Assembly (NCBI GenBank): GCA_047515735.1
Contig: JAKZWC010000169.1
Coordinates: 1-48,490 of the forward strand
Origin: Spirochaetales bacterium
GTDB taxonomy: Bacteria; Spirochaetota; Spirochaetia; SZUA-6; Bin103
DNA length: 48,490 nucleotides
Direction of reading: 5' to 3'
Of this stretch, positions 5,170-15,003 are shown piece after piece. Made by a program: the position numbers and the translations under genes. A model generated the notes under the pieces. It was not told the origin of the DNA, did not search any database, and saw only the letters and a program-made list of their open reading frames with translations. Each line of letters begins with the position of its first letter. The stretch's first letter is position 1.

Positions 5170-7518
5170 ATGAGCGATACCACCACCACCACCAAGTCGG
5201 GCTACCGCTGGATCGGCAAGCGGCCGATTCGCCACGACGGCGTCGACAAGGTCACCGGGCGCGCCCAGTACGGCGCTGACTTTGCGCTGCCCGGAATGCT
5301 GTACGGCAGGGCGCTGCGCAGCACCTACGCCCACGCCCGCATCAAGTCGATCGACACCAGCGCGGCGCGTGCCCTGGAAGGGGTCAAGGACGTGATCACC
5401 GCGGCCGACTTCCCCGAGGTCAGCGCCGCAGGGCAGATCGACGCGGAGGCGCCGGCCAGCATCAAGGATACGGCCCACAACGTGATCGCCCGCGACAAGG
5501 TGCGCTACCACGGCCACGCCGTAGCGGCCGTGGCCGCCGTCAGCCCCGCCATAGCCGACGCAGCGCTCAAGCTGATCAAGGTCGACTACGAGCCGCTGCC
5601 GGTGGTGCTGGACGTGATGGAGGCGTGCGCCGCGGACGCGCCGCTGATCGACGAGTCGCAGCGCACCAACGGCGAGGCCGATGCCGCCCCCTCCAACGTC
5701 GCCTCGAGCAACACGTTCGAGGGCGGCGACCTCACGCAGGGCTTCGACGCCGCCGACGTGATCATCGAGCACGAGTTCGACAGCGGCACCGTGCACCAGG
5801 GTTACATCGAGACCCACGCCTGCTTGGCGCGCGCCACGGAGAGCGGCGAGATCACCCTGTGGGTATCCAGCCAGGGCCACTTCTCGATCCGCGACAGCGC
5901 CGCCCAGGTGCTGGCCATCGAGCCCTCCAAGATCCGGGCGATCCCCGCCGAGATCGGCGGCGGCTTCGGCGGCAAGACCACGGTCTACCTGGAGCCGATG
6001 GCGATCCTGATGGCGCAGCGCACCGGCCATCCGGTGAAGATGGTGATGACCCGCGACGAGGTGTTCCGCGCCACCGGCCCGGCACCGGGCAGCCACACCC
6101 GCATCAGGATGGGCGCCACCCGCGACGGCCGCATCACCGCGGTGGACTGCGACCTGTGGTTCGAGGCCGGCGGCTTTCCCGGCTCCGCGGTGGGTGCCGC
6201 CATGATGGCGCTGATCTCTCCCTACGACGTGGCCAACTTCCGCATCGTCGGCTACGACGTGCTGGTCAACAAGCCCAAGTCGCACGCCTACCGTGCGCCG
6301 GGCGCGCCCAACGCCGCCCACGCCAGCGAGTGCGTGATCGACGAGATCTGCGAGCAGATCAACATGGACCCGCTGGAGTTCCGCCTCAAGAACGCGGCCA
6401 AGAAGGGCACCAAGGCGCCCTACGGTCCGGTGTTCCCCGAGATCGGCATGGTGGAGACGGTGCAGGCATGCCTGGATCATCCCCACTACCGGGCACCGCT
6501 GGGACCCAACCAGGGCCGCGGCGTGGCCTCCGGCTTCTGGATGAACGGCGGCGGCGATGCCACCGCCCACATCGCCGTCCAGCCGGACGGCATGGTGACG
6601 CTGGTGACCGGCCGCCCCGACATCGGCGGCTCCCGCGCCGGCCACGCCATGGTGCTGGCCGAGGAGCTGGGCATCGACGTGGATAACGTGCGGCCCTCGA
6701 TCGGCGATACCGACGCCATCGGCTTCAACGGCGTCACCGGCGGCAGCAGCACCGCCTACTCCGCGGCGGTGGCGGTGCACGAGGCGGCGCAGAAACTGAT
6801 CGCCGACGCCCGCCGCCGAGCGGCCGAGATCTGGGACGTGCAGTCCGACGACGTCGAGTGGCGCGACGGCGCCGCCCACCTCAAGGCGGGAGTCAACGGC
6901 ACCGAGGCGCCGCTCACGCTCGCAGACCTGGCGGACAAGGCGTCGCAGACCGGTGGGCCGCTGGCGGCCGACGCGTCGGTCAACGCCAAGGGCGCCGCGC
7001 CCGCGCTCGGCACCCACATCTGCGACGTGGAGGTGGATCCGGAGACCGGCAAGGTGGACGTCATCCGCTACACCGTGGCGCAGGACGCCGGCCGCGCGAT
7101 CCACAAGAGCTACGTGGAAGGCCAGCTGCAGGGCGGCGCCGTGCAGGGCATCGGCTGGGCGCTCAACGAGGAGTACCTGTTCAACGAAGACGGCGTGATG
7201 GAGAACGCCGGCTTCCTGGATTACCGCATGCCGGTGGCGCTGGACCTGCCGATGATCGACACGGTAGTGGTCGAGGTGCCCAACCCGCGCCATCCCTACG
7301 GCGTGCGCGGCGTCGGCGAAAACGCCATCGTGCAACCGCTGGCGGCGGTCGCCAACGCCATCTACGATGCCGTCGGCGTGCGCCTGTACAGCGTCCCGAT
7401 GTCACCGCCCCGGGTGCTCAAGGCGCTGCACGACGCGCAGGCCGCCCGTCACGTCGCGGCCTCCGGCAACGGCACCGCCGCCGCGGAACGGCAACCGGAG
7501 CCGGTCACCGCGCGCTGA
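5170..7518 (+). CDS. Xanthine dehydrogenase / aldehyde oxidase family molybdopterin-binding (large) subunit
   Basis: 782-aa ORF with GAAGGAG Shine-Dalgarno at 5154-5160. The a/b-hammerhead start (GKRPIRHDGVDKVTGRAQYGAD), IGGGFGGK, and C-terminal PYGVRGVGE are typical of Mo-hydroxylase large subunits. Confidence 0.85.
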   Translation: MSDTTTTTKSGYRWIGKRPIRHDGVDKVTGRAQYGADFALPGMLYGRALRSTYAHARIKSIDTSAARALEGVKDVITAADFPEVSAAGQIDAEAPASIKDTAHNVIARDKVRYHGHAVAAVAAVSPAIADAALKLIKVDYEPLPVVLDVMEACAADAPLIDESQRTNGEADAAPSNVASSNTFEGGDLTQGFDAADVIIEHEFDSGTVHQGYIETHACLARATESGEITLWVSSQGHFSIRDSAAQVLAIEPSKIRAIPAEIGGGFGGKTTVYLEPMAILMAQRTGHPVKMVMTRDEVFRATGPAPGSHTRIRMGATRDGRITAVDCDLWFEAGGFPGSAVGAAMMALISPYDVANFRIVGYDVLVNKPKSHAYRAPGAPNAAHASECVIDEICEQINMDPLEFRLKNAAKKGTKAPYGPVFPEIGMVETVQACLDHPHYRAPLGPNQGRGVASGFWMNGGGDATAHIAVQPDGMVTLVTGRPDIGGSRAGHAMVLAEELGIDVDNVRPSIGDTDAIGFNGVTGGSSTAYSAAVAVHEAAQKLIADARRRAAEIWDVQSDDVEWRDGAAHLKAGVNGTEAPLTLADLADKASQTGGPLAADASVNAKGAAPALGTHICDVEVDPETGKVDVIRYTVAQDAGRAIHKSYVEGQLQGGAVQGIGWALNEEYLFNEDGVMENAGFLDYRMPVALDLPMIDTVVVEVPNPRHPYGVRGVGENAIVQPLAAVANAIYDAVGVRLYSVPMSPPRVLKALHDAQAARHVAASGNGTAAAERQPEPVTAR

Positions 7519-7667
7519 GACCACGCAGCAAGACCCAAGCACTATAGGCCGGCGCCCGCAGGGAGTGCCCCCGCAGGCGCCGGCTGCCCGATCATCCTGA
7601 TTACTGGGTACGCCGGCGCCCCTGGGCTGGGCTACTCGCCAGGGTGGACGAGATCGACCCGTTGATC

Positions 7668-7775
7668 GTCCCACGCCGCGGTGCTGGGATGAAGCTAATC
7701 GCGGTCATCCGGGATCCTGCCGAGATCAGCAAGATTCCGGCCCACCTGATGAGCACCCGTCGGGCACCTCTGGGG
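7668..7775 (+). mobile_element. Possible decayed C-terminal remnant of an IS91-family (Y2 HUH, rolling-circle) transposase
   Basis: The translation VPRRGAGMKLIAVIRDPAEISKIPAHLMSTRRAPLG resembles the recalled C-terminal signature of IS91/IS801/ISCR transposases (CPxCGGxhxhIAxIxdPxvIxKILxHLGLxxRAPP). Only about 36 codons survive, with no upstream catalytic part. The comparison is from memory only. Confidence 0.35.
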
Positions 7776-8155
7776 CGGCTCCGAAATCCGCACCGTGAGG
7801 ATCGGAGCTTCGGTGTCCATTTGCCGCTTCAACCGCATGCGGAGTTCCGCCATGGTGTCGGCGTGACGCGCGGTCGCCCACCAAGTTGCCGCCTCGTTGG
7901 GACGGAACAACAGATCGCAGACCTGCTCTTTGGGCATCGGCTGGCTCTCTACTAGCCGTGGCGCAGCGATTTCTTTGAGCTGCTGCCGGCGCTGAAGTCG
8001 CCGGCGCTCCACGGGTCGGGAGAGCGCTCCGAGTCGTATGCCATTGGAACGGTTCCTGCCTCACACGTTGTGCGCCCTGCAAGCTGACTTTGCAGATCGT
8101 GGGTACTTGTGGCATAGTTCCATGTGGTCTCCAACCCGACCTGAGCAGGCGCGCT

Positions 8156-9385
8156 ATGTACATCGAATCAATTACCATGCGTGAATTCCGAACTTTCAAG
8201 CAGGTGAGCACCAACTTCCTGCATCCCGATGAGCAGTACGGCGATGAACATGAACCGCCAGGTGTTACGAACATGAACCTCATGATCGGGACAAATGGAT
8301 CAGGCAAGACGACGCTCCTCAAGGGTATAGCCCTGGCAGCTCTCGGACCCGCCGTGGCTGACTCGGGACTGTTCCCCTACTACCTTATTCGACGCGTATT
8401 CGGCCAAGAAGGTAATCGTGAGGCGTCGATCAAGGCGGTCTTCATTCCCAACAGACAGGATCGAAAGAATGGTTTTCCAGAGTCAGTCGAGAGAATCCAC
8501 TCTCACATCCGCATCGACCACCGTGGCGATCTTGAAAGGCTCAAGTGGGCACATGATGACGACAAACACTGGCACCCGATCTTCAGCAGCCGTTCGGACG
8601 CTTTCTTCTTCGTAGGATACGGCTCGAGTAGGCGCGTTGAGAAGGCTGATCGAGTTGACGAAGCGGGACGAAGAGTGTCGTCTTTCTCTCGTGCACGACG
8701 GATCATGAGCCTATTCGAGGAAGCATACTCACTGCTTCCATTGAGTCACTGGTTGCCACGGTACCAGGACAATGATCCGGCTCGTTTCGCCGAGGTGAGA
8801 GAGCTCGTCAACCGTCTCCTCGGTCGCGACCGATACCGATTCACGGGTGATATGGAAGACGGAGAGTACCTCTTTGAGGACCGGAATATTCGTGTTCCAT
8901 TTCCAGCGCTATCTGACGGATATCGCGCTCTACTCGGGTGGATTGGCGACCTATTGTATCACATTTGCGAGACCTGTCCCAGTGGGAAGCGGATTGCAGA
9001 GAACCAAGGCATCGTAATGATCGACGAGGTTGATCTACACATTCATCCGGGATGGCAGATGCGATTACTACCCGAAATCGCTCGACAGTTGCCACGAATC
9101 CAGTTTATCGTCACGTCTCACAGCCCTCTCCTGGTGGGGTCTCTTGAATGGCGGAACATCATCGTTATCCGACAGATCACAGACGGCAGCAGCTTGGAGC
9201 GGGTACGAGCTCAAGTATCCAGAATGGACGCCGATCAGATCCTCTTGACCGATATCTTCGGCCTTGAGTCGACACGATCGGCATCTCAGACGCGCCGGAT
9301 ACGGGCGCTTCTCGCGCACGCCCGGGATGGGGATACCGAGGCGGCCCGGAAGCTGATGGCTGAGTTATCGGGGTCGAATCACTGA
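8156..9385 (+). CDS. ABC/SMC-like AAA ATPase (AAA_21/AAA_15 type), PtuA-like component of a Septu-like defence cassette
   Basis: I place the start at ATG 8156 (MYIESITMREFRTFK, the usual I-x-x-I-x-I-x-N-F-R-type N-terminus), not 8090. Walker A GTNGSGKTT at 8288-8314. ABC signature-like LSDGYRALL at 8909-8935. Walker B IVMIDEVD at 9011-9034, followed by LHIHP. H-loop TSHSP. G+C is much lower than in the flanking genes. Confidence 0.85.
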   Translation: MYIESITMREFRTFKQVSTNFLHPDEQYGDEHEPPGVTNMNLMIGTNGSGKTTLLKGIALAALGPAVADSGLFPYYLIRRVFGQEGNREASIKAVFIPNRQDRKNGFPESVERIHSHIRIDHRGDLERLKWAHDDDKHWHPIFSSRSDAFFFVGYGSSRRVEKADRVDEAGRRVSSFSRARRIMSLFEEAYSLLPLSHWLPRYQDNDPARFAEVRELVNRLLGRDRYRFTGDMEDGEYLFEDRNIRVPFPALSDGYRALLGWIGDLLYHICETCPSGKRIAENQGIVMIDEVDLHIHPGWQMRLLPEIARQLPRIQFIVTSHSPLLVGSLEWRNIIVIRQITDGSSLERVRAQVSRMDADQILLTDIFGLESTRSASQTRRIRALLAHARDGDTEAARKLMAELSGSNH

Positions 9386-9525
9386 TCCGCTACGACGTCA
9401 CACTGGATCGACTTGAGGAACTGCTCGAACAACATAAACCGGGATGGATCAAGCGTGCAAAAGAGCGGACCGATTCATTCCGCGAAGAGGGGAGGTACGA
9501 GGATCGGAGCACCATCTGGGGTGAG

Positions 9526-10239
9526 GTGAAGTCGGTGTTCATGGACATCCAAGGGGGTGGCAAGTGCTGTTTCTGCGAGCGCAAGTTCGAGTCGGGCGTG
9601 CTTGGGCGATACGAGCTCGACATCGAGCACTTCCGCCCGAAGGGAGAGATCAAGGCATGGAAAGTTCCTCAATCTCTGCTTGACGAAGGAATCCCGTTCA
9701 CAGCTCCTCCCGCTGCTAGCCACGGGTACTATCTTCTGGCGTACCACCTCTTGAATCTCACGGTGGCATGCAAGCCATGTAATTCGGGTCTCAAGAAGAG
9801 CTACTTTCCAATCGGCGGTACTTACGATTTGCATGGTGACGACCCAAGACAAATGGGTGGGGAGCAGCCGTGGCTTATGTATCCGATAGGAGACCTGGAC
9901 GTCGATCCGGAAGACGTGATCAATTTCTACGGTATTCTGCCACGAAGTACATCGCAGCGTGGGCTCGTTACAATCATCTTCTTCGGTCTCGATAACGCCA
10001 TTGGGCGCAAGCAACTGATGAGGGACCGGGCGAGGTTGATTGTCTGCCTTTATCCACAACTCCAGATGGCCCAGCATTCATCCGTGGAAGCCGCAGCGTT
10101 TGTCGCGAAGACTTGTGCAGAGAGCGAGCCACACACCAACTGTGCCCGGAGCTTCGTGCGACTGTTCCAATGCGATCAGGCCGCAGCAGGCAGAGTGGCC
10201 AACGAAGCCAACAAGTATTTTGTTTCCGGATCGCTGTAG
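9526..10239 (+). CDS. HNH endonuclease of the TIGR02646 type, PtuB-like (true start probably upstream, possibly CTG 9382)
   Basis: The motif string GKCCFCE...DIEHFRPK...NLTVACKPCNSGLK (about 9565-9783) gives the CxxC...H...N...CxxCN beta-beta-alpha-metal finger of the AAA-ATPase-associated HNH family. The frame is open from 9364 and overlaps the ATPase stop. The track ORF starts at GTG 9526. Confidence 0.8.
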   Translation: MKSVFMDIQGGGKCCFCERKFESGVLGRYELDIEHFRPKGEIKAWKVPQSLLDEGIPFTAPPAASHGYYLLAYHLLNLTVACKPCNSGLKKSYFPIGGTYDLHGDDPRQMGGEQPWLMYPIGDLDVDPEDVINFYGILPRSTSQRGLVTIIFFGLDNAIGRKQLMRDRARLIVCLYPQLQMAQHSSVEAAAFVAKTCAESEPHTNCARSFVRLFQCDQAAAGRVANEANKYFVSGSL

Positions 10240-10349
10240 CCTTACTTAATCGATGCGAGGACGCGAGTTCTAACGGCGCTCCGATCATACTGCAGTTTCC
10301 CGCTACGACAACCGCGGTCCGAGGCAGTTTGGCAGCGCATATCTCAATC

Positions 10350-11468
10350 TTAATGGCGCACCGACCCGTCGGCGTGCAGCGCGGCGCTCACCGGCCGTGA
10401 ACGGAACGGCAGCCGGGCCGCCGCCGCCTCGTCGATTTCGATGCCGATACCGGGCCGCTGCGGAAGCTGCAGGTATCCGTCCACCACCCGCGGTTGTTCA
10501 TCGACCAGCTCCAGCGCCGGCCCCTGCTTGATGTTGGCTTCCTGCACGAAGTAGTTGGGGATGGCGGCATCGAGCTGGGCGAAGGCCATGGTGTTGACCG
10601 GACTGCCCATCAGGTGGGGGAAGTAGCGCACGAAGCGCGCCTCCGCCAGCGCGGCGATCTTCCTGGCCTGAGTGATGCCCCCCGCCAGTGACAGGTCCGC
10701 GCGCACGAACGCCACGATGCCGCGCTCGATCAACTCCGCGAACTGAAACAGGCTGTAGCTGCGCTCGCCGGCGGCGAGCGGCACGTCGACGTGGCGCGCG
10801 ACGTACTCCAGGGCGTCCTCGCTCTGCGGCGGCAACGGGTCCTCGTAGTAGGCCAGGCGGAAGGGTGCCAGCTCGCGGCCCAGGGTGATCGCTTCGGCGG
10901 GCGTCAGGTTGCGGTGGATCTCCACTCCGAGATCGGCGCGGTCGCCGATCGCATCGCGGATCGCCGCCACGATCGCCACCGCCGAGCCGATCACCGCGCT
11001 GGAGCTGTCCGTCGCCTCCCAGCCGGCGAAGAAGGGCTGGGTGCGGAGCGAGACGAAGCCCTGCTCCACCAGCGCGCGGGCGTGCTCGGCCCGCTCCGCC
11101 ACGCTTTCGCCGGCCACGTTCTCGAACACCTTGATGCGGTCGCGGCAAGGCCCGCCCAACAGGCGGTGCACGGGCAGTCCCGCCACCTTGCCGGCGATGT
11201 CCCACAGCGCCACGTCGATGGCGCTCAGGGCGGCGCTGGACACCGAGCCCATGAAGTGGCTGGCGCGGGTGACTGCCTGGTGATGATGCTCGATCAGGGC
11301 CGGGTCCTTGCCCACGAAGTACTCGGCGAGCGACTCGATGGCGCGCGCCACCACCTCGTGACTGGCCCACAGGCCGGCTTCGCCGTTGCCTACCAGCCCG
11401 GCGTCGGTGGCGACCCGCACCAGGAGGAACTGGTCGCTGAGGAGCGGTTTGACGGACGTGATGCGCAT
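10350..11468 (-). CDS. Enolase-superfamily sugar-acid dehydratase (mandelate racemase/muconate lactonising enzyme family; D-galactonate/D-mannonate dehydratase-like)
   Basis: The track ORF (to 11705) is over-extended. The homologous protein begins at MRITSVKPLLSDQFLLVRVATDAGLVGNGEAG (ATG at 11468). It has the family capping domain followed by the barrel (DLGVEIHRNL, YYEDPL, AAGER). Confidence 0.85.
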   Translation of the reverse strand: MRITSVKPLLSDQFLLVRVATDAGLVGNGEAGLWASHEVVARAIESLAEYFVGKDPALIEHHHQAVTRASHFMGSVSSAALSAIDVALWDIAGKVAGLPVHRLLGGPCRDRIKVFENVAGESVAERAEHARALVEQGFVSLRTQPFFAGWEATDSSSAVIGSAVAIVAAIRDAIGDRADLGVEIHRNLTPAEAITLGRELAPFRLAYYEDPLPPQSEDALEYVARHVDVPLAAGERSYSLFQFAELIERGIVAFVRADLSLAGGITQARKIAALAEARFVRYFPHLMGSPVNTMAFAQLDAAIPNYFVQEANIKQGPALELVDEQPRVVDGYLQLPQRPGIGIEIDEAAAARLPFRSRPVSAALHADGSVRH

Positions 11469-11481
11469 GCCGGCGGCTCCG

Positions 11482-12345
11482 CTAGTGGATCGGCACGCCG
11501 GCAGCTGCGGCGATGCGCTGCGCGTTGGCCACGGCGCCGGGAATGCGCTCGTCCGGGAGGTGCTCCACCAGCATGTAGCCGTCCGGCCGCAACGCCTCCC
11601 AGCGCCGCACGGCGGTGGCCAGGTCCAGGCAGCCTTCGCCGGGGGCGGCCTCGTCGAGGTGCACCACGAAGCCGTCGACGGTGGCCAGGTCCTTGAAGTG
11701 GGCAATGGCAGCGATCGGTCCCATCAGGTCGAAGATGTGATCGATCCGGGCCGGGCTGGAGCACGCCTGTTCCCACGACTGGAAGTGGTTCACGAAGTCC
11801 ATCACCACCCGCAGCCGGGGTGAGCCGACGGCGTCGACCACTTGGCGGTTGATCTCGGGAGTGCCGAGGATGGTCAGGTTGTGGGTCTCCACCACCACGG
11901 TCAACTCCGCCGCCTCCGCGGCCGCGGCCACGCTGTGCAGCTCGGCGACGAGCGTCTCCAGCCGTCCCGGTTCGTGGTTGCGCGGCGAGGGACTGTAGGA
12001 TCCGGTGGGGCTCAGGCTGCCGGTGCGGATCAGGAGTACCCCGGCACCCAACTCGAGCCCTGCCTCCAGGCCGCGCGAGATCTTGCGTTGAATGGCGGCA
12101 CGCACCGTGGCGTCGGGATCGAACAGGCATTCACCATAGCCGACGCCGAGCTGTGCCAGCTCCAGGCCGGCGTCGGCGTAGCGCTGCCGGCAGGCGCGGA
12201 GCTCGGCGGAGGTCACCGCGAACAGCACCTCGCCCGGCGCATGGAAGCAGGCCGCCGATACCCCCAGCGCGCGCACCCGCTCCAGGTGCTCGCGGCGCAC
12301 TTCCCGCGGATCGCCCGGCAGGATACCTACGACACCGAGTCGCAT
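11482..12345 (-). CDS. Sugar phosphate isomerase/epimerase (xylose isomerase-like TIM barrel)
   Basis: 287-aa ORF. AP-endonuclease-2/xylose-isomerase-like barrel pattern (LGVSAACFH..., VVVETHN, MLVEH). Same strand as, and adjacent to, the dehydratase gene. Confidence 0.75.
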   Translation of the reverse strand: MRLGVVGILPGDPREVRREHLERVRALGVSAACFHAPGEVLFAVTSAELRACRQRYADAGLELAQLGVGYGECLFDPDATVRAAIQRKISRGLEAGLELGAGVLLIRTGSLSPTGSYSPSPRNHEPGRLETLVAELHSVAAAAEAAELTVVVETHNLTILGTPEINRQVVDAVGSPRLRVVMDFVNHFQSWEQACSSPARIDHIFDLMGPIAAIAHFKDLATVDGFVVHLDEAAPGEGCLDLATAVRRWEALRPDGYMLVEHLPDERIPGAVANAQRIAAAAGVPIH

Positions 12346-12355
12346 GGCCGAGCCC

Positions 12356-13192
12356 TCAGCCGAGCTGCGCCAGGTAGTGGCGCATCTGCTGCACGTACTG
12401 CGGGAACCCCACCGACGGATCGGGCAGGTAGTCCTTCCACGCCTTCTCCCACTCCAGCGTCAGGTAGCCGTCGTAGCCGCCGGCGTGCAGCACCGGCAGC
12501 GTGTCGGGCACCGGCACGTCACCATCACCCAGCAGACAGTAGCGGTAGCCCTCCCGGTCGCTGTCGGTGAGGTAGGAGTCCTTGATGTGGGTATCCACCA
12601 CATGCGGCCCGACGTTGTCCCAGCACTGCCGCGGGGTCTGGCCGTACAGGCGCCACGGGTGATGGACGTCCCACTGCACCTTGACGAAGGGGTGATCCAC
12701 ACGGGCGACGATATCCTTCACCAGAATGGTGTCGACGAAGTGGTCGTGGGTCTCCACCGCCGCCGCCACCCCCACCGAGGAGCCGTACTCGGCCACGGTG
12801 CGCAGACTCTCCACCACCCAGCCGTAGGCGGCGTTGCGATCCACCTCCGGTGCGATGCGGCCGCCGTACAGCCGGATCTTGTCGATCCCCATGGCGCCCG
12901 CCAGCTCCATGTTCGCCTTCGCTTCGTCGATGTTGGCTTGGCGCTCGTCCGCCGTGGCCGACGAGAACTTGCAGCCGGTCATCAGCATCATGATCTCCAG
13001 CCCGGCGTCGGCGGCCATGCGCAGCGTCTCCGCGCGCCGGCCCGGCTGCAGTTCCGGTACCTTGAGCAGGTCCATCTCCCCCATAAGGCCGCGGATCTCG
13101 AATCCGTCGAAACCGTACTCCCGCGCCTTGGCCACGATCGTCGCATACGGCCAGTCGGGGCACCCGAGCGTAGAAAACCCAAGTTTCATCAT
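12356..13192 (-). CDS. Sugar phosphate isomerase/epimerase (xylose isomerase-like TIM barrel)
   Basis: The real start is MMKLGFSTLGCPDWPY (ATG at 13192), with GGAGGA 6-11 nt upstream on the minus strand. Motifs GFDGFEIR, AVETHD and YLTLEWE are present. The track ORF extension to 13471 has no support. Confidence 0.8.
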   Translation of the reverse strand: MMKLGFSTLGCPDWPYATIVAKAREYGFDGFEIRGLMGEMDLLKVPELQPGRRAETLRMAADAGLEIMMLMTGCKFSSATADERQANIDEAKANMELAGAMGIDKIRLYGGRIAPEVDRNAAYGWVVESLRTVAEYGSSVGVAAAVETHDHFVDTILVKDIVARVDHPFVKVQWDVHHPWRLYGQTPRQCWDNVGPHVVDTHIKDSYLTDSDREGYRYCLLGDGDVPVPDTLPVLHAGGYDGYLTLEWEKAWKDYLPDPSVGFPQYVQQMRHYLAQLG

Positions 13193-13300
13193 GCAGTTCC
13201 TCCGTTGAGGTATCAGTGGCAAAGAAATAATCAGGGCGTCGAGTTGCAGGGCATCACGCGCGCCTCTCCACAGTCGAATCGGTGACTTGACTTGCTTTAG

Positions 13301-13338
13301 GCTTGACAGTGTTGTCAAATATGACAACACTGTCAAGC
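13301..13338. promoter_or_regulatory. Perfect 17-bp inverted repeat with 4-nt spacer (GCTTGACAGTGTTGTCA-AATA-TGACAACACTGTCAAGC), candidate operator/promoter element
   Basis: Read directly from the sequence: both arms are exact reverse complements, and each arm contains TTGACA. It ends 2 nt before the GTG (13341) of the toxin reading frame. It lies in the divergent intergenic region with the isomerase operon. Confidence 0.6.
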
Positions 13339-13340
13339 TA

Positions 13341-13691
13341 GTGGTCCCCGACACACGGCCGATAGGGTGAATCAGGGCAGCGCGCAAGGAGTTCGGGAAG
13401 TTCCCGGGAAATGTCCGGGATCGCATCGGTACCGCGCTCACCATTGCCGCCGAAGGTGGAAGAGCGGACATCGCTAAACCGATGAGGGGCCTTGGACCAC
13501 GTGTAATAGAGATTGCCGTGCGCTACCGGACAGACGCCTATCGCACAGTCTACGTCGCTGAGATTGCGGGGTCACTGTGGGTGGTGCACGCTTTCCTCAA
13601 GAAGTCGAAAACGGGAATCAAGACGCCGAAAGCGGAGATTGACCTCATCCGCGGCCGTATAGCATGGCTCAGAAGGAACCTGGAGCAATGA
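13341..13691 (+). pseudogene. Gp49/HigB-like (RelE/ParE superfamily) toxin gene interrupted by an in-frame TGA at 13368-13370
   Basis: Continuous frame from GTG 13341: VVPDTRPIG*IRAARKEFGKFPGNVRDRIGTALTIAAEGGRADIAKPMRGLGPRVIEIAVRYRTDAYRTVYVAEIAGSLWVVHAFLKKSKTGIKTPKAEIDLIRGR. This matches the family consensus (W-x-G-S-x-x-K-D-L-x-x-F-P ... YR-x-x-Y ... HAF-x-KK-x-x-x-TP). The TGA sits where the conserved Trp (TGG) is expected. The track ORF (13482..13691) is only the 3' part. Confidence 0.7.
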
Positions 13692-14017
13692 GCGCGTCCG
13701 ACTACCAACTGGTTCGAGGCAGCGGAAACCTGTTCCGTGACCTGCATGATCCGGACGCTGATCTGAAGCACGCCAAGGCAGTCCTCGCCGCAAGGATCAT
13801 CATGGTGCTGGATCAAGGCAAGATCTCCGTGCGAATGGCCGCCGACATGACCGGCTTTGCCGCGGCGGATTTCTCTCGCGTGCGTAACGCGGATCTCGCC
13901 CGCTTTACGTTGGACCGGCTGATCAGAATGTTAGGAGGCCTGGACGGGAGCATCGAAGTTACCGTGCATTTGACCCCGCGGAAGATCCGCCAAAGCGTCG
14001 CGTCAAGCTCCGACTGA
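13688..14017 (+). CDS. XRE-family helix-turn-helix antitoxin (HigA-like partner of Gp49-type toxins)
   Basis: Start ATG 13688 overlaps the toxin stop (ATGA, 13688-13691). The sequence SGNLFRDLHDPDADLKHAKAVLAARI...ISVRMAADMTGFAAADFSRVRNADLARFTLDRLIRML fits the usual GSxNVFxDLG...HTH...FSxDxL pattern. Confidence 0.8.
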   Translation: MSASDYQLVRGSGNLFRDLHDPDADLKHAKAVLAARIIMVLDQGKISVRMAADMTGFAAADFSRVRNADLARFTLDRLIRMLGGLDGSIEVTVHLTPRKIRQSVASSSD

Positions 14018-14082
14018 CGAGAACCACCCAGTCCCACCGTCGGCCGACTCCAAGAGCAGCCGGCCGACGACTTCGTACCCGC

Positions 14083-15003
14083 TCAGCCTGCCATGAACGT
14101 CTCGACCTGCCGCCGGGTGTGATACGAGGGCAGCGTGGCGAGCCTGGTGCAGCAGAGGGCGGCGGCGGCGTTGGCGAAGCGTGCCGCCGCGGCCAGCGGA
14201 CGGCCCTCGGCCAGGGCCACCGCCAGCCCCGCGTTGAAAGCGTCGCCGGCACCGGTGGTGTCCACCACCGGGGAGACCGCGAAGCCGGGCACGTGCTCGC
14301 TGCCGGACGGGGTGACGCACAGACAGCCGCGCTCCCCGAGCGTGAGCAGGGCGGCGCCGCAGCCCCGTTCCAGCAGCCGGCGGCCGAGTTCCTCCTCGGC
14401 GGCGCGGTCGGCCGCGCCCAACCCCAGACAGACCCGCGCCTCGGTCTCATTGGGGGTGATCAGCGCCACGCTGGACAGGTCCTCGGCCGACAGGTCGTGT
14501 GCCGGGGCCGGGTTGAGGATGGTGGTGCAGCCCGCCGCCCGGCCCGCCTGCATGGCGCGCAGGGCGGTCCGCAGCGGGATCTCGAGTTGGGTCAGCACCG
14601 TGGCCGGAGGCTGCATCAGGTTCCCGGCGCGCTCCACGTCGGCGGCCGAGAAGTGCGCATTGGCGCCGCTGTCGATGGCGATCATGTTCTGGCCGTCGTT
14701 TCCCAGCAGGATGAAACCGACGCCGGTGGCGGTATCCGCCTGCGTACCCAGGTGTTCCGCGGCCACTCCCTCGGCCGCCAGCAGATCGGCAAACGCCCGG
14801 CCGCGGGCATCGTCGCCCACCCGCCCGACGAAGCTGGTGCGAGCTCCCAGGCGCGCCGCCTGCACCGCCATGTTGGAGCCCTTGCCGCCGTGGGTCTCGA
14901 AGTAGCCGTGGCCGGGGACCGTCTCCCCCACCGCCGGGAAACGCTCCACCTCGATCACCAGCGCTACCAGGTAGCTGCCGATCACGACTACGTCAGGCTT
15001 CAT
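14083..15003 (-). CDS. rbsK: Ribokinase / PfkB-family carbohydrate kinase
   Basis: 306-aa ORF. N-terminal VVVIGS...GGKGSNMAVQAARLG and C-terminal DTTGAGDAFNAG (PfkB signature 2) are typical of ribokinases. Confidence 0.75.
   Translation of the reverse strand: MKPDVVVIGSYLVALVIEVERFPAVGETVPGHGYFETHGGKGSNMAVQAARLGARTSFVGRVGDDARGRAFADLLAAEGVAAEHLGTQADTATGVGFILLGNDGQNMIAIDSGANAHFSAADVERAGNLMQPPATVLTQLEIPLRTALRAMQAGRAAGCTTILNPAPAHDLSAEDLSSVALITPNETEARVCLGLGAADRAAEEELGRRLLERGCGAALLTLGERGCLCVTPSGSEHVPGFAVSPVVDTTGAGDAFNAGLAVALAEGRPLAAAARFANAAAALCCTRLATLPSYHTRRQVETFMAG

Follow-up and report, generated by a model that had tools for sequence, protein, structure and literature searches.

A probable stand-alone type I Septu cassette with a putative CTG start for ptuB at a variable site in a Spirochaetales genome

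Septu, which is one of the commoner defence systems, was reportedly first described, as the gene pair PtuA/PtuB, by Doron et al. in 2018. A putative member of this class is analysed here in a 48,490-nt stretch of DNA from a Spirochaetales bacterium (contig JAKZWC010000169.1, assembly GCA_047515735.1; the whole stretch is referred to as the window), in which a gene for an ABC-type ATPase, ptuA, is followed by one for an HNH nuclease, ptuB. Two kinds of described system serve for comparison: stand-alone Septu, represented by the E. coli Septu structures 8EE4, 8EE7, 8EEA and 8SUX and by Septu EcB88 (PMC13096335), and the PtuAB modules of type I-A retrons (Retron-Eco7/Ec78, Eco4/Ec83), termed 'type II Septu' in PMC12640716. 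The latter source's account of E. coli Septu includes a 6:2 PtuA:PtuB complex, DNA cleavage, inhibition by ATP and a context-dependent substrate. Among the features given in PMC12819146 are the clamping of the helical C-terminal domain of PtuB by the C-terminal extensions of a PtuA dimer, and a stand-alone PtuA that has Leu for Gln in its signature motif and no ATPase activity; retron PtuA is distinguished there by an N-terminal extension, an m-loop and a helical flap. For Septu EcB88, the results in PMC13096335 include a requirement for the Walker A/B and HNH residues, cleavage of tRNA-Tyr and an abortive-infection-like phenotype. The window pair, which a sequence-only reading had put forward as a Septu-like candidate anti-phage system, is very probably a stand-alone type I Septu cassette with its own promoter, horizontally acquired and lodged at a variable locus where two housekeeping genes of an uncultured bacterium with ~70% G+C converge.

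The first gene (8156-9385, forward strand) encodes PtuA, an ABC-type (AAA_21/AAA_15) ATPase of 409 amino acids (aa). The PADLOC profile PtuA1 (PDLC00301) matches it at 2.2e-133 (443 bits), aligning residues 1-407 with positions 1-406 of 429, and the next 8 matches, like 23 of the 25 best, are also PtuA models. Both Pfam cut-offs are passed (AAA_21, 85.1 bits against 27, 1.2e-23; AAA_15, 49.8 bits against 32.1). The motifs previously picked out in the sequence are all present, namely Walker A GTNGSGKTT at residues 45-53 (K51), LSDGYRALL at 252-260 (the signature LSDGYR being 252-257), Walker B IVMIDEVD at 286-293 (D290-E291) and TSHSP at 320-324 (H-loop H322), and the protein retains 87/87 invariant columns of a 41-sequence alignment, including K51, Q101, S253-D254-G255, D290 and H322. 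In searches of the PDB, E. coli Septu PtuA (8ee4) is matched at 2.2e-18, improving to 3.7e-26 with a family profile, and retron-associated PtuA chains are matched as well, PtuA chains overall falling between 1e-16 and 1e-26. A model of PtuA made with AlphaFold2 (AF2) has a mean predicted local distance difference test score (pLDDT) of 77.7 and a predicted template modelling (TM) score of 0.79; the 50 best listed Foldseek matches to it in the PDB are all PtuA, headed by the E. coli Septu complex (8eea_C) at 2.1e-20.

The comparison with stand-alone Septu extends beyond these scores. In both cases there are two co-oriented genes, for an ABC-type ATPase and then an HNH nuclease, with no other component; the predicted fold of the window PtuA is nearest to 8EEA (TM 0.54-0.62); Walker A, signature, Walker B and H-loop are all in place; the signature contains no Gln, reading LSDGYR in the window and LSDGLR in 8ee4; and helices at the C-terminus of PtuA (~376-405) are predicted together with a helical C-terminal domain of PtuB. 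The window PtuA differs in being 409 rather than 465 aa long and only ~20% identical over the structural alignment. This length had been regarded as short for such an ATPase, an impression that is not borne out within the subfamily: the homologues of PtuA number over 1,500, and where they are full length their size is nearly always 407-417 aa.

Membership of another family that joins an ABC ATPase to a nuclease, such as PARIS (AriA/AriB), Gabija, the OLD family or an AbiL-like system, is scarcely credible. These do belong to the same broad ABC-type ATPase superfamily, with a paired or fused nuclease and a part in phage defence, and the shared ABC ATPase fold is enough to bring up AriA both in PADLOC (5.1e-23) and in the PDB (8ux9, 1.8e-4); the OLD-family nuclease 6p74 is reached at 3.8e-5 with the family profile, and the Pfam description of AAA_21 names AbiEii. 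However, the PtuA models beat AriA by 110 orders of magnitude, and the scores of the ATPase with AriA and OLD proteins are far below those with PtuA. It has no fused nuclease domain, and its partner is an HNH rather than a TOPRIM protein, matched by 25 PtuB models but by none for TOPRIM or DUF4435.

That partner is, by sequence, identified as PtuB with its set of catalytic motifs intact. Taken as the 285-aa product of 9382-10239 on the forward strand, with a putative CTG start at 9382-9384, it matches the PADLOC profile PtuB1 (PDLC00318) at 9.1e-70 (233.5 bits, profile positions 1-288 of 299), and 21 further PtuB1 models stand among the top 25. The HNH motifs GKCCFCE, DIEHFRPK and NLTVACKPCN, remarked on earlier, are all found in it. 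They supply a first CxxC (C62/C65), the catalytic H83, N125, a second CxxC (C130/C133) and N134, seven residues that are invariant in a 36-sequence family alignment, and a helical C-terminal domain follows at ~200-285. The description of gene 2 as a TIGR02646-type protein holds only in so far as a weak match exists: TIGR02646 matches 28/36 family members and the NCBIfam PtuB model (NF041761) 24/36, all weakly, and the window PtuB scores 17.6 bits against a TIGR02646 cut-off of 52.15, NF041761 likewise being sub-threshold.

PtuB belongs to a large subfamily that is already modelled by PADLOC and is uncharacterised. With clusters defined at 50% identity, an exhaustive profile search gives 396 of them at E<=1e-30; the number grows to 1,448 when the threshold is relaxed to E<=1e-10, nearly all being of ~280-305 aa, and a helical N-terminal region of ~50 residues is conserved in this subfamily. 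On a conjugative Rhizobium plasmid that encodes a PtuA 42% identical to that of the window, the adjoining gene is named 'hypothetical protein' in RefSeq. As to the choice that had been left between a canonical Septu and a divergent relative, the system is an ordinary member of a large stand-alone Septu subfamily modelled by PADLOC; the sequence of its PtuB is divergent from characterised PtuB. PADLOC-type tools would call the locus automatically, and the finding matters little beyond annotation; what goes further than routine annotation is only the CTG/CTGA start and the uncharacterised PtuB subfamily.

The relationship with retrons requires separate consideration, as the best named NCBIfam match of PtuA is the retron Ec78 PtuA model (NF041760, 2.4e-32) and retron PtuA chains score level with stand-alone PtuA in the PDB searches. 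The proteins are clearly homologous, the C-terminal half of PtuA aligning to retron counterparts at 1e-17 to 1e-26 and the CxxC...EHFRPK half of the PtuB HNH motif aligning with 9n69_F, 22bv_F and 9vh1_F. That the pair might serve a type I-A retron (Ec78/Ec83-like) as its effector module, with the reverse transcriptase and non-coding RNA (ncRNA) of that retron nearby or lost, is nevertheless very improbable. NF041760 gives 112.5 bits where its cut-off is 500, a score that comes mainly from the C-terminal part, the best stretch being residues 239-405; the retron PtuA and PtuB models of NCBIfam are both matched far under their cut-offs. At 409 aa, PtuA is ~140 residues shorter than the ~550-aa retron chains in the PDB, and the unit that moves between contexts consists of ptuA and ptuB only. 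The sequence-only reading had noticed neither a reverse transcriptase nor an ncRNA partner, and wider searches agree: an Rfam scan of 6500-14500 (E<=1) detects no RNA family, giving only two chance-level matches (E 0.84 and 0.92), and the gene tables of the syntenic loci hold no reverse-transcriptase (RVT) domain, both neighbours being metabolic genes. The cassette has no reverse transcriptase, ncRNA or multicopy single-stranded DNA of the kind that defines the retron systems, as expected for type I Septu, and the absence of reverse transcriptase and retron RNA identifies the cassette as a stand-alone one. Its PtuB, at 285 aa, is also longer than the solved retron-associated PtuB chains (215-266 aa).

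The single unusual feature of the cassette is the beginning of ptuB, where the putative start codon is of a rare kind. The frame of this gene is open from 9364, directly after a stop codon at 9361-9363, and contains no ATG, GTG or TTG between that stop and position 9526. The open reading frame (ORF) from the first canonical start, GTG 9526, has 237 aa and is without the conserved N-terminus. As had been noticed, the open frame overlaps the stop of the ATPase gene; more precisely, a CTG at 9382-9384 overlaps the ptuA stop codon TGA (9383-9385) to form a 4-nt CTGA. The earlier identification of gene 2 as an HNH protein stands, but it was made on the canonical-start ORF, whose H35 is H83 of the 285-aa protein. 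The 237-aa ORF matches PDLC00318 only from profile position 50 on (1.9e-55, 186.5 bits), and it is the extension to the CTG that raises this to 233.5 bits. Full-length PtuB homologues have 290-295 aa and the consensus N-terminus MIRY; in the 36-sequence alignment I2, Y4, W22, W46 and K50 are invariant, and the first residue is M in 34/35 homologues and V in the other. The 48 codons added from 9382 encode this family N-terminus exactly, with CTG standing at the start codon.

The same arrangement recurs elsewhere. In five related loci (L003, L006, L007, L008 and L089), as in the window, ptuA comes first and ptuB is adjacent, co-oriented and overlapping; the junction is CTGA in four cassettes, those of the window, L006, L007 and L008, and GTGA in the more distant L003 and L089. 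The four CTGA cassettes differ by up to 19% in DNA sequence and lie in two different genomic contexts, yet the 48-codon extension is open in them while the other two frames contain stops. For the 47 added codons, comparison with L003 gives a ratio of nonsynonymous to synonymous substitution rates (dN/dS) of 0.31, and comparison with L008 one of 0.51. The conclusion from these comparisons is that ptuB comprises 9382-10239, and its start appears to have changed from GTG to CTG in this Septu subclade with the overlap with the ptuA stop kept. Most likely, ptuB is initiated at this weak CTG by ribosomes that have just terminated on ptuA, an arrangement that would keep PtuB scarcer than PtuA.

Because ptuB is read in the -1 frame relative to ptuA, a PtuA-PtuB fusion made by programmed -1 frameshifting was also considered; it was rejected, since 9364-9385 shows no slippery heptamer of the X XXY YYZ form and relatives have a plain GTG at the same codon. 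In the public protein collection, nine of the PtuB calls from close relatives are of 232-239 aa and a tenth (P0008) is frameshifted, at 280 aa. Five of these calls were traced to their DNA: those of L006, L007 and L008 result from the CTG start, and those of L001 and L002 from the CTG together with insertions or deletions (indels). Gene callers truncate this ptuB, and the Septu subfamily is therefore probably under-annotated. Two further proteins that might have pointed to non-canonical starts were dismissed: P0110, from L089, is truncated by a frameshift behind a normal GTGA junction, and P0098, from L090, is an orphan 5'-truncated ptuB without ptuA. The latter (L090 4001-4735) is fused directly to a fragment of a gamma-glutamyltranspeptidase gene and is a case of cassette decay elsewhere. 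Nor are the PtuB proteins P0004 ('84%') and P0008 ('96%') independent relatives, both being frameshifted and derived from assemblies 99% identical to the window.

Several observations weigh against the reading of the pair as a working stand-alone Septu system, most of them concerning PtuB. Initiation at CTG is weak, so that expression of PtuB could be poor. Pfam contains no match to PtuB, and the protein is distant from every solved PtuB: a single-sequence search of the PDB reaches only E=0.8, the best match with a family profile (9n69_F, 2.9e-4) covers only the CxxC...EHFRPK half of the HNH motif, and E. coli Septu PtuB is not matched at E<=1 by either search. H83 and N125 are 42 residues apart, as opposed to 16 in Septu EcB88 PtuB (H75, N91), which implies that the HNH motif carries an insertion in this subfamily. 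The AF2 model of PtuB, made with the 36-sequence alignment, has a pLDDT of only 60.8, with the HNH core (59-174), a region that in solved PtuB has the beta-beta-alpha-metal fold, below 50 and confidence confined to the N-terminal helices and the helical C-terminal domain (~206-282, pLDDT 83-96); Foldseek finds no match to this low-confidence model at E<=0.001, only noise (gyrase and designed proteins, E>2). Compared with the stand-alone systems, then, the window PtuB is set apart by its ~50-residue N-terminal helical region, the insertion between H83 and N125, the CTG start and the lack of a significant sequence match to E. coli Septu PtuB. Finally, frameshifting indels cluster in the cassette of L001 and L002, two assemblies with 99% identity to the window.

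These last indels raise the question of whether the cassette is a decaying, non-functional remnant, in which pseudogenisation would have begun with the loss of the canonical ptuB start and would already have led to frameshifts in the sister strains. In L002 (99.0% identical) there are ~8 indel events within ptuA and ptuB, compared with ~0.4 per kb in 14 kb of flanks, and an alignment with window 7800-10300 places 1-nt indels at 8247, 8538, 8667, 8740, 9661 and 10210, 3-nt indels at 9135 and 9676, and two longer changes, 8 nt inserted at 8012 and 27 nt deleted over 10247-10273. Indels occur in the cassette of L001 too, and the excess is not explained by homopolymer density. Full-length PtuB has no ATG, GTG or TTG start, and the window PtuB is without 6 residues that are present in 35/35 aligned homologues. 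Even so, decay of the window copy seems unlikely. Neither of its ORFs is shortened, no family-invariant residue is missing from either, and the CTGA junction is common to four cassettes diverged by up to 19% in two contexts, with the extension open, the other frames stopped and a dN/dS of 0.3-0.5. Identical intact proteins are found in other samples (P0121, n=14 member sequences; P0001, n=17). The L001 and L002 indels sit in short base runs, and the genes flanking the L001 cassette are fragmented as well; furthermore, L007 represents a second allele of the cassette, 8% diverged and set between flanks 98.6-99.5% identical to the window's, and if two such alleles co-occurred in a sample the mixture could corrupt the consensus. 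The indels are either real decay in the sister strains or an artefact of a mixed-allele consensus.

With the cassette taken as an intact stand-alone Septu, its mode of action can be sketched by analogy. PtuA dimers would assemble into a higher oligomer, with the PtuA C-terminal helices holding the helical C-terminal domain of PtuB. Most likely this PtuA oligomer holds PtuB inactive while nucleotide-bound, keeping the complex quiet in uninfected cells, and frees the HNH nuclease on infection; nucleic acid would then be cut, the infected cell would arrest its growth and the phage yield would be lost. The window pair holds the matching parts: a complete nucleotide-binding site, a signature without Gln (LSDGYR), a complete Cys4/His/Asn set in the HNH motif, C-terminal helices in PtuA and a helical C-terminal domain in PtuB that AF2 predicts with confidence. 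The function and target suggested for the pair are taken over from the described systems in the same way; for this divergent PtuB the substrate may be DNA or a tRNA. A bolder combination of ideas is doubtful, if conceivable: that termination-reinitiation on a very weak codon, by ribosomes translating ptuA, is the sole source of PtuB, as a built-in device holding a toxic nuclease below its ATPase scaffold, and that PtuB, with its N-terminal helices and ~25-residue HNH insertion, may recognise another substrate or trigger than the E. coli systems.

The composition of the cassette is foreign to the window. The drop in G+C content claimed by the sequence-only reading is real, and its hand counts are exact (30/60 at 8701-8760 and 28/60 at 9781-9840, against 43/60 at 12001-12060). 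In sliding 400-nt windows G+C is 0.53-0.59 across ~7800-10400 and 0.66-0.74 on either side, and the lowest-G+C stretch of the 48 kb is 8056-10349, where the value falls from ~0.70 to ~0.55. For 2.2-kb windows over the whole 48.5-kb sequence the mean is 0.681 (standard deviation 0.032), and the minimum, 0.548 at 8101, is ~4 standard deviations lower. G+C at third codon positions (GC3) is 0.60 in ptuA and 0.64 in ptuB, as against 0.88-0.94 in four flanking genes.

The extent of the mobile unit is defined by two cassettes whose flanks are unrelated to those of the window: blastn matches L008 over 8078-10243 at 81% and L003 over 8087-10259 at 77%, giving a recurrent unit at 8078-10259 (forward) composed of promoter region, ptuA and ptuB. 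In four hosts the cassette has a G+C content of ~0.54 amid flanking DNA of 0.62-0.70. The candidate promoter lies at 8090-8118 on the forward strand, with a -35 element TTGCAG (8090-8095), a 17-nt spacer, TG at 8110-8111 and a -10 element CATAGT (8113-8118), and an AGG is found 7-9 nt ahead of the ptuA ATG. A consensus promoter scan flagged nothing upstream of ptuA, and the candidate -35 matches at only 3/6 positions; TTGCA, a gap of ~17 nt and TGnCATAGTT are, however, kept in 5/5 cassettes drawn from different contexts, amid bases that do vary, which argues for this being the cassette's own promoter. Near the L008 copy, 1 kb downstream and on the opposite strand (L008 7668-8975), is a group II intron reverse transcriptase (RVT_1 and GIIM domains); it is not of the retron type, but automated calls could mistake it for one.

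Some indication of where the cassette came from is provided by the DNA just upstream of it. Besides the two convincing genes already recognised, the interval contains a minus-strand 3' fragment of a sulfatase gene, a pseudogene remnant within 7695-8012, which is 58% identical (BLASTP, E=3e-16) to residues 355-413 of the sulfatase encoded in L003; the homologous core, 7774-7967, aligns with L003 2917-3111 at 74% (blastn). In L003 an intact sulfatase gene lies directly upstream of ptuAB and has a host-like G+C of 0.713, compared with 0.548 for the cassette. On the simplest reading, the cassette would have come in along with adjacent DNA of a donor genome organised as in L003, and the bulk of the sulfatase gene would have been lost afterwards. 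The low GC3, the empty or differently filled sites in relatives, the presence of the same cassette in other contexts and the sulfatase fragment together imply a foreign origin, and the cassette thus appears to have been acquired horizontally. Horizontal acquisition had been proposed before; the foreign composition and the variable site support it, but the insertion is not recent, since L006, with flanks 91-93% identical to those of the window, has the cassette at the same site. No integrase, tRNA-like element or convincing flanking repeat was found at the cassette site. The sole repeat pair bracketing the insert, 19 nt at 79% identity (7581-7599 and 10274-10292), was judged to be due to chance and is not seen in the empty sites of L010 and L011.

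The site itself lies, as first described, between metabolic genes: upstream a molybdenum-hydroxylase gene (Ald_Xan_dh_C/MoCoBD domains; 5170-7518, forward strand) and downstream, convergent with it, an enolase-superfamily MR_MLE gene (10350-11468, reverse strand). In six species-level relatives (L009-L014) the two genes are convergent as in the window and encode proteins 79-95% identical to its flanks, and none of the six has ptuAB there. Two of them have nothing inserted, the genes being only 87 bp (L010) and 146 bp (L011) apart. In L012 (9160-12223) the site holds a D12-class DNA methyltransferase (PADLOC PD-Lambda-5_B, 6.3e-46) followed by a PD-Lambda-5_A-matching protein (2.7e-15), and in L014 (9125-11287) a D12-class methyltransferase, recognised by similarity only, followed by a PD-Lambda-5_A-matching protein (2.3e-13); L013 has a D12-class methylase only (9100-10020, called by sequence similarity) and a duplicated 3' fragment of the hydroxylase gene. 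In L009, of the relatives without Septu the closest to the window, the reverse strand at 9210-9983 encodes two proteins, one a retropepsin-like aspartyl protease of 139 aa (gag-asp_proteas, 3.2e-7) and the other, of 117 aa, weakly matched by DUF5678. The Septu cassette occupies the site in the window and in the metagenome contigs L006 and L007, the flanks of L007 being 98.6-99.5% identical to the window's. L009 is as near to the window as L006 is, yet carries a different cargo, which means that the site turns over between closely related lineages. The locus is a small, compact hot spot for cargo of the defence type, and no integrase accompanies it. Neither a lack of profile matches nor a host-like composition conserved in all relatives, named by the sequence-only reading as grounds for abandoning its proposal, is found, given the PADLOC and Pfam matches of the pair, its absence from the six relatives and its foreign composition.

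Where the cassette is shared it has diverged faster than its surroundings: its identity to the window is 85% in L006 and 91.8% in L007, against 91-93% and ~99% for the respective flanks, and PtuB is the most changed part (74-85% protein identity). This fits allele exchange or diversifying selection, and in combination with the steady ~54% G+C across four hosts it fits repeated exchange. The site, which occurs in an uncultured lineage, could serve to find further small defence cassettes, the L009 pair being a candidate; neither protein of that pair has a match in PADLOC, and they could constitute an uncharacterised toxin-antitoxin or defence pair. Two further features of the occupied sites were seen. 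L012 has a third ORF, of 306 aa, without a match, and the duplicated fragment in L013 (10076-10663), beside the methylase, is 88% identical to residues 588-782 of the molybdenum hydroxylase and suggests rearrangement at the hot spot.

Around the cassette, the intervening DNA is of mixed origin. The spacer 7519-7756 is host-like (G+C 0.668) and common to L006 and L007. It includes, just past the molybdenum-hydroxylase stop and outside the cassette, a G+C-rich hairpin (7548-7584; 16-nt arms, 88% complementary, 5-nt loop) that is probably the terminator of that gene. Its distal part, 7601-7756, is present in L006 and L007 and missing from the empty sites, and both of its strands bear short ORFs (such as ...MKLIAVIRDPAEISKIPAHL...); it may be the remnant of an older insertion, and the short ORFs of 7601-8012 have no match in Pfam. 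The following 299 bp (7757-8055) are not in L006, the blastn breakpoints at 7756 and 8056 both falling at L006 6516. In L007 the breakpoints are at window 7756 (L007 1087) and window 8073 (L007 6540), and a 5.4-kb insertion (L007 1088-6539) at the former encodes a 608-aa DDE_Tnp_1 transposase and several ORFs without a known domain, one of them giving a faint TerB match. On the far side, the ptuB and MR_MLE stop codons are separated by a 110-bp spacer (10240-10349, G+C 0.555), in which, as in the rest of the region downstream of ptuB, a promoter/terminator scan shows no terminator-like site.

Smaller variable segments are found further along the same region. A second low-G+C patch of the window (13190-14087, ~0.57-0.60), which is not in L006, contains an ORF for a Gp49/HigB-like toxin (13482-13691; Pfam Gp49, 2.8e-10) overlapping a 117-aa ORF (13664-14017), and at the matching position the sister strain L002 has a gene with an HTH_37 domain; the patch looks like a small toxin-antitoxin module inserted amid sugar-metabolism genes. 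Conversely, L006 has an insert of ~900 bp with a Uma2-family gene (10185-10826) between its MR_MLE and AP_endonuc_2 genes, where the gap in the window is 13 bp, a further small insert of variable presence in this operon region.

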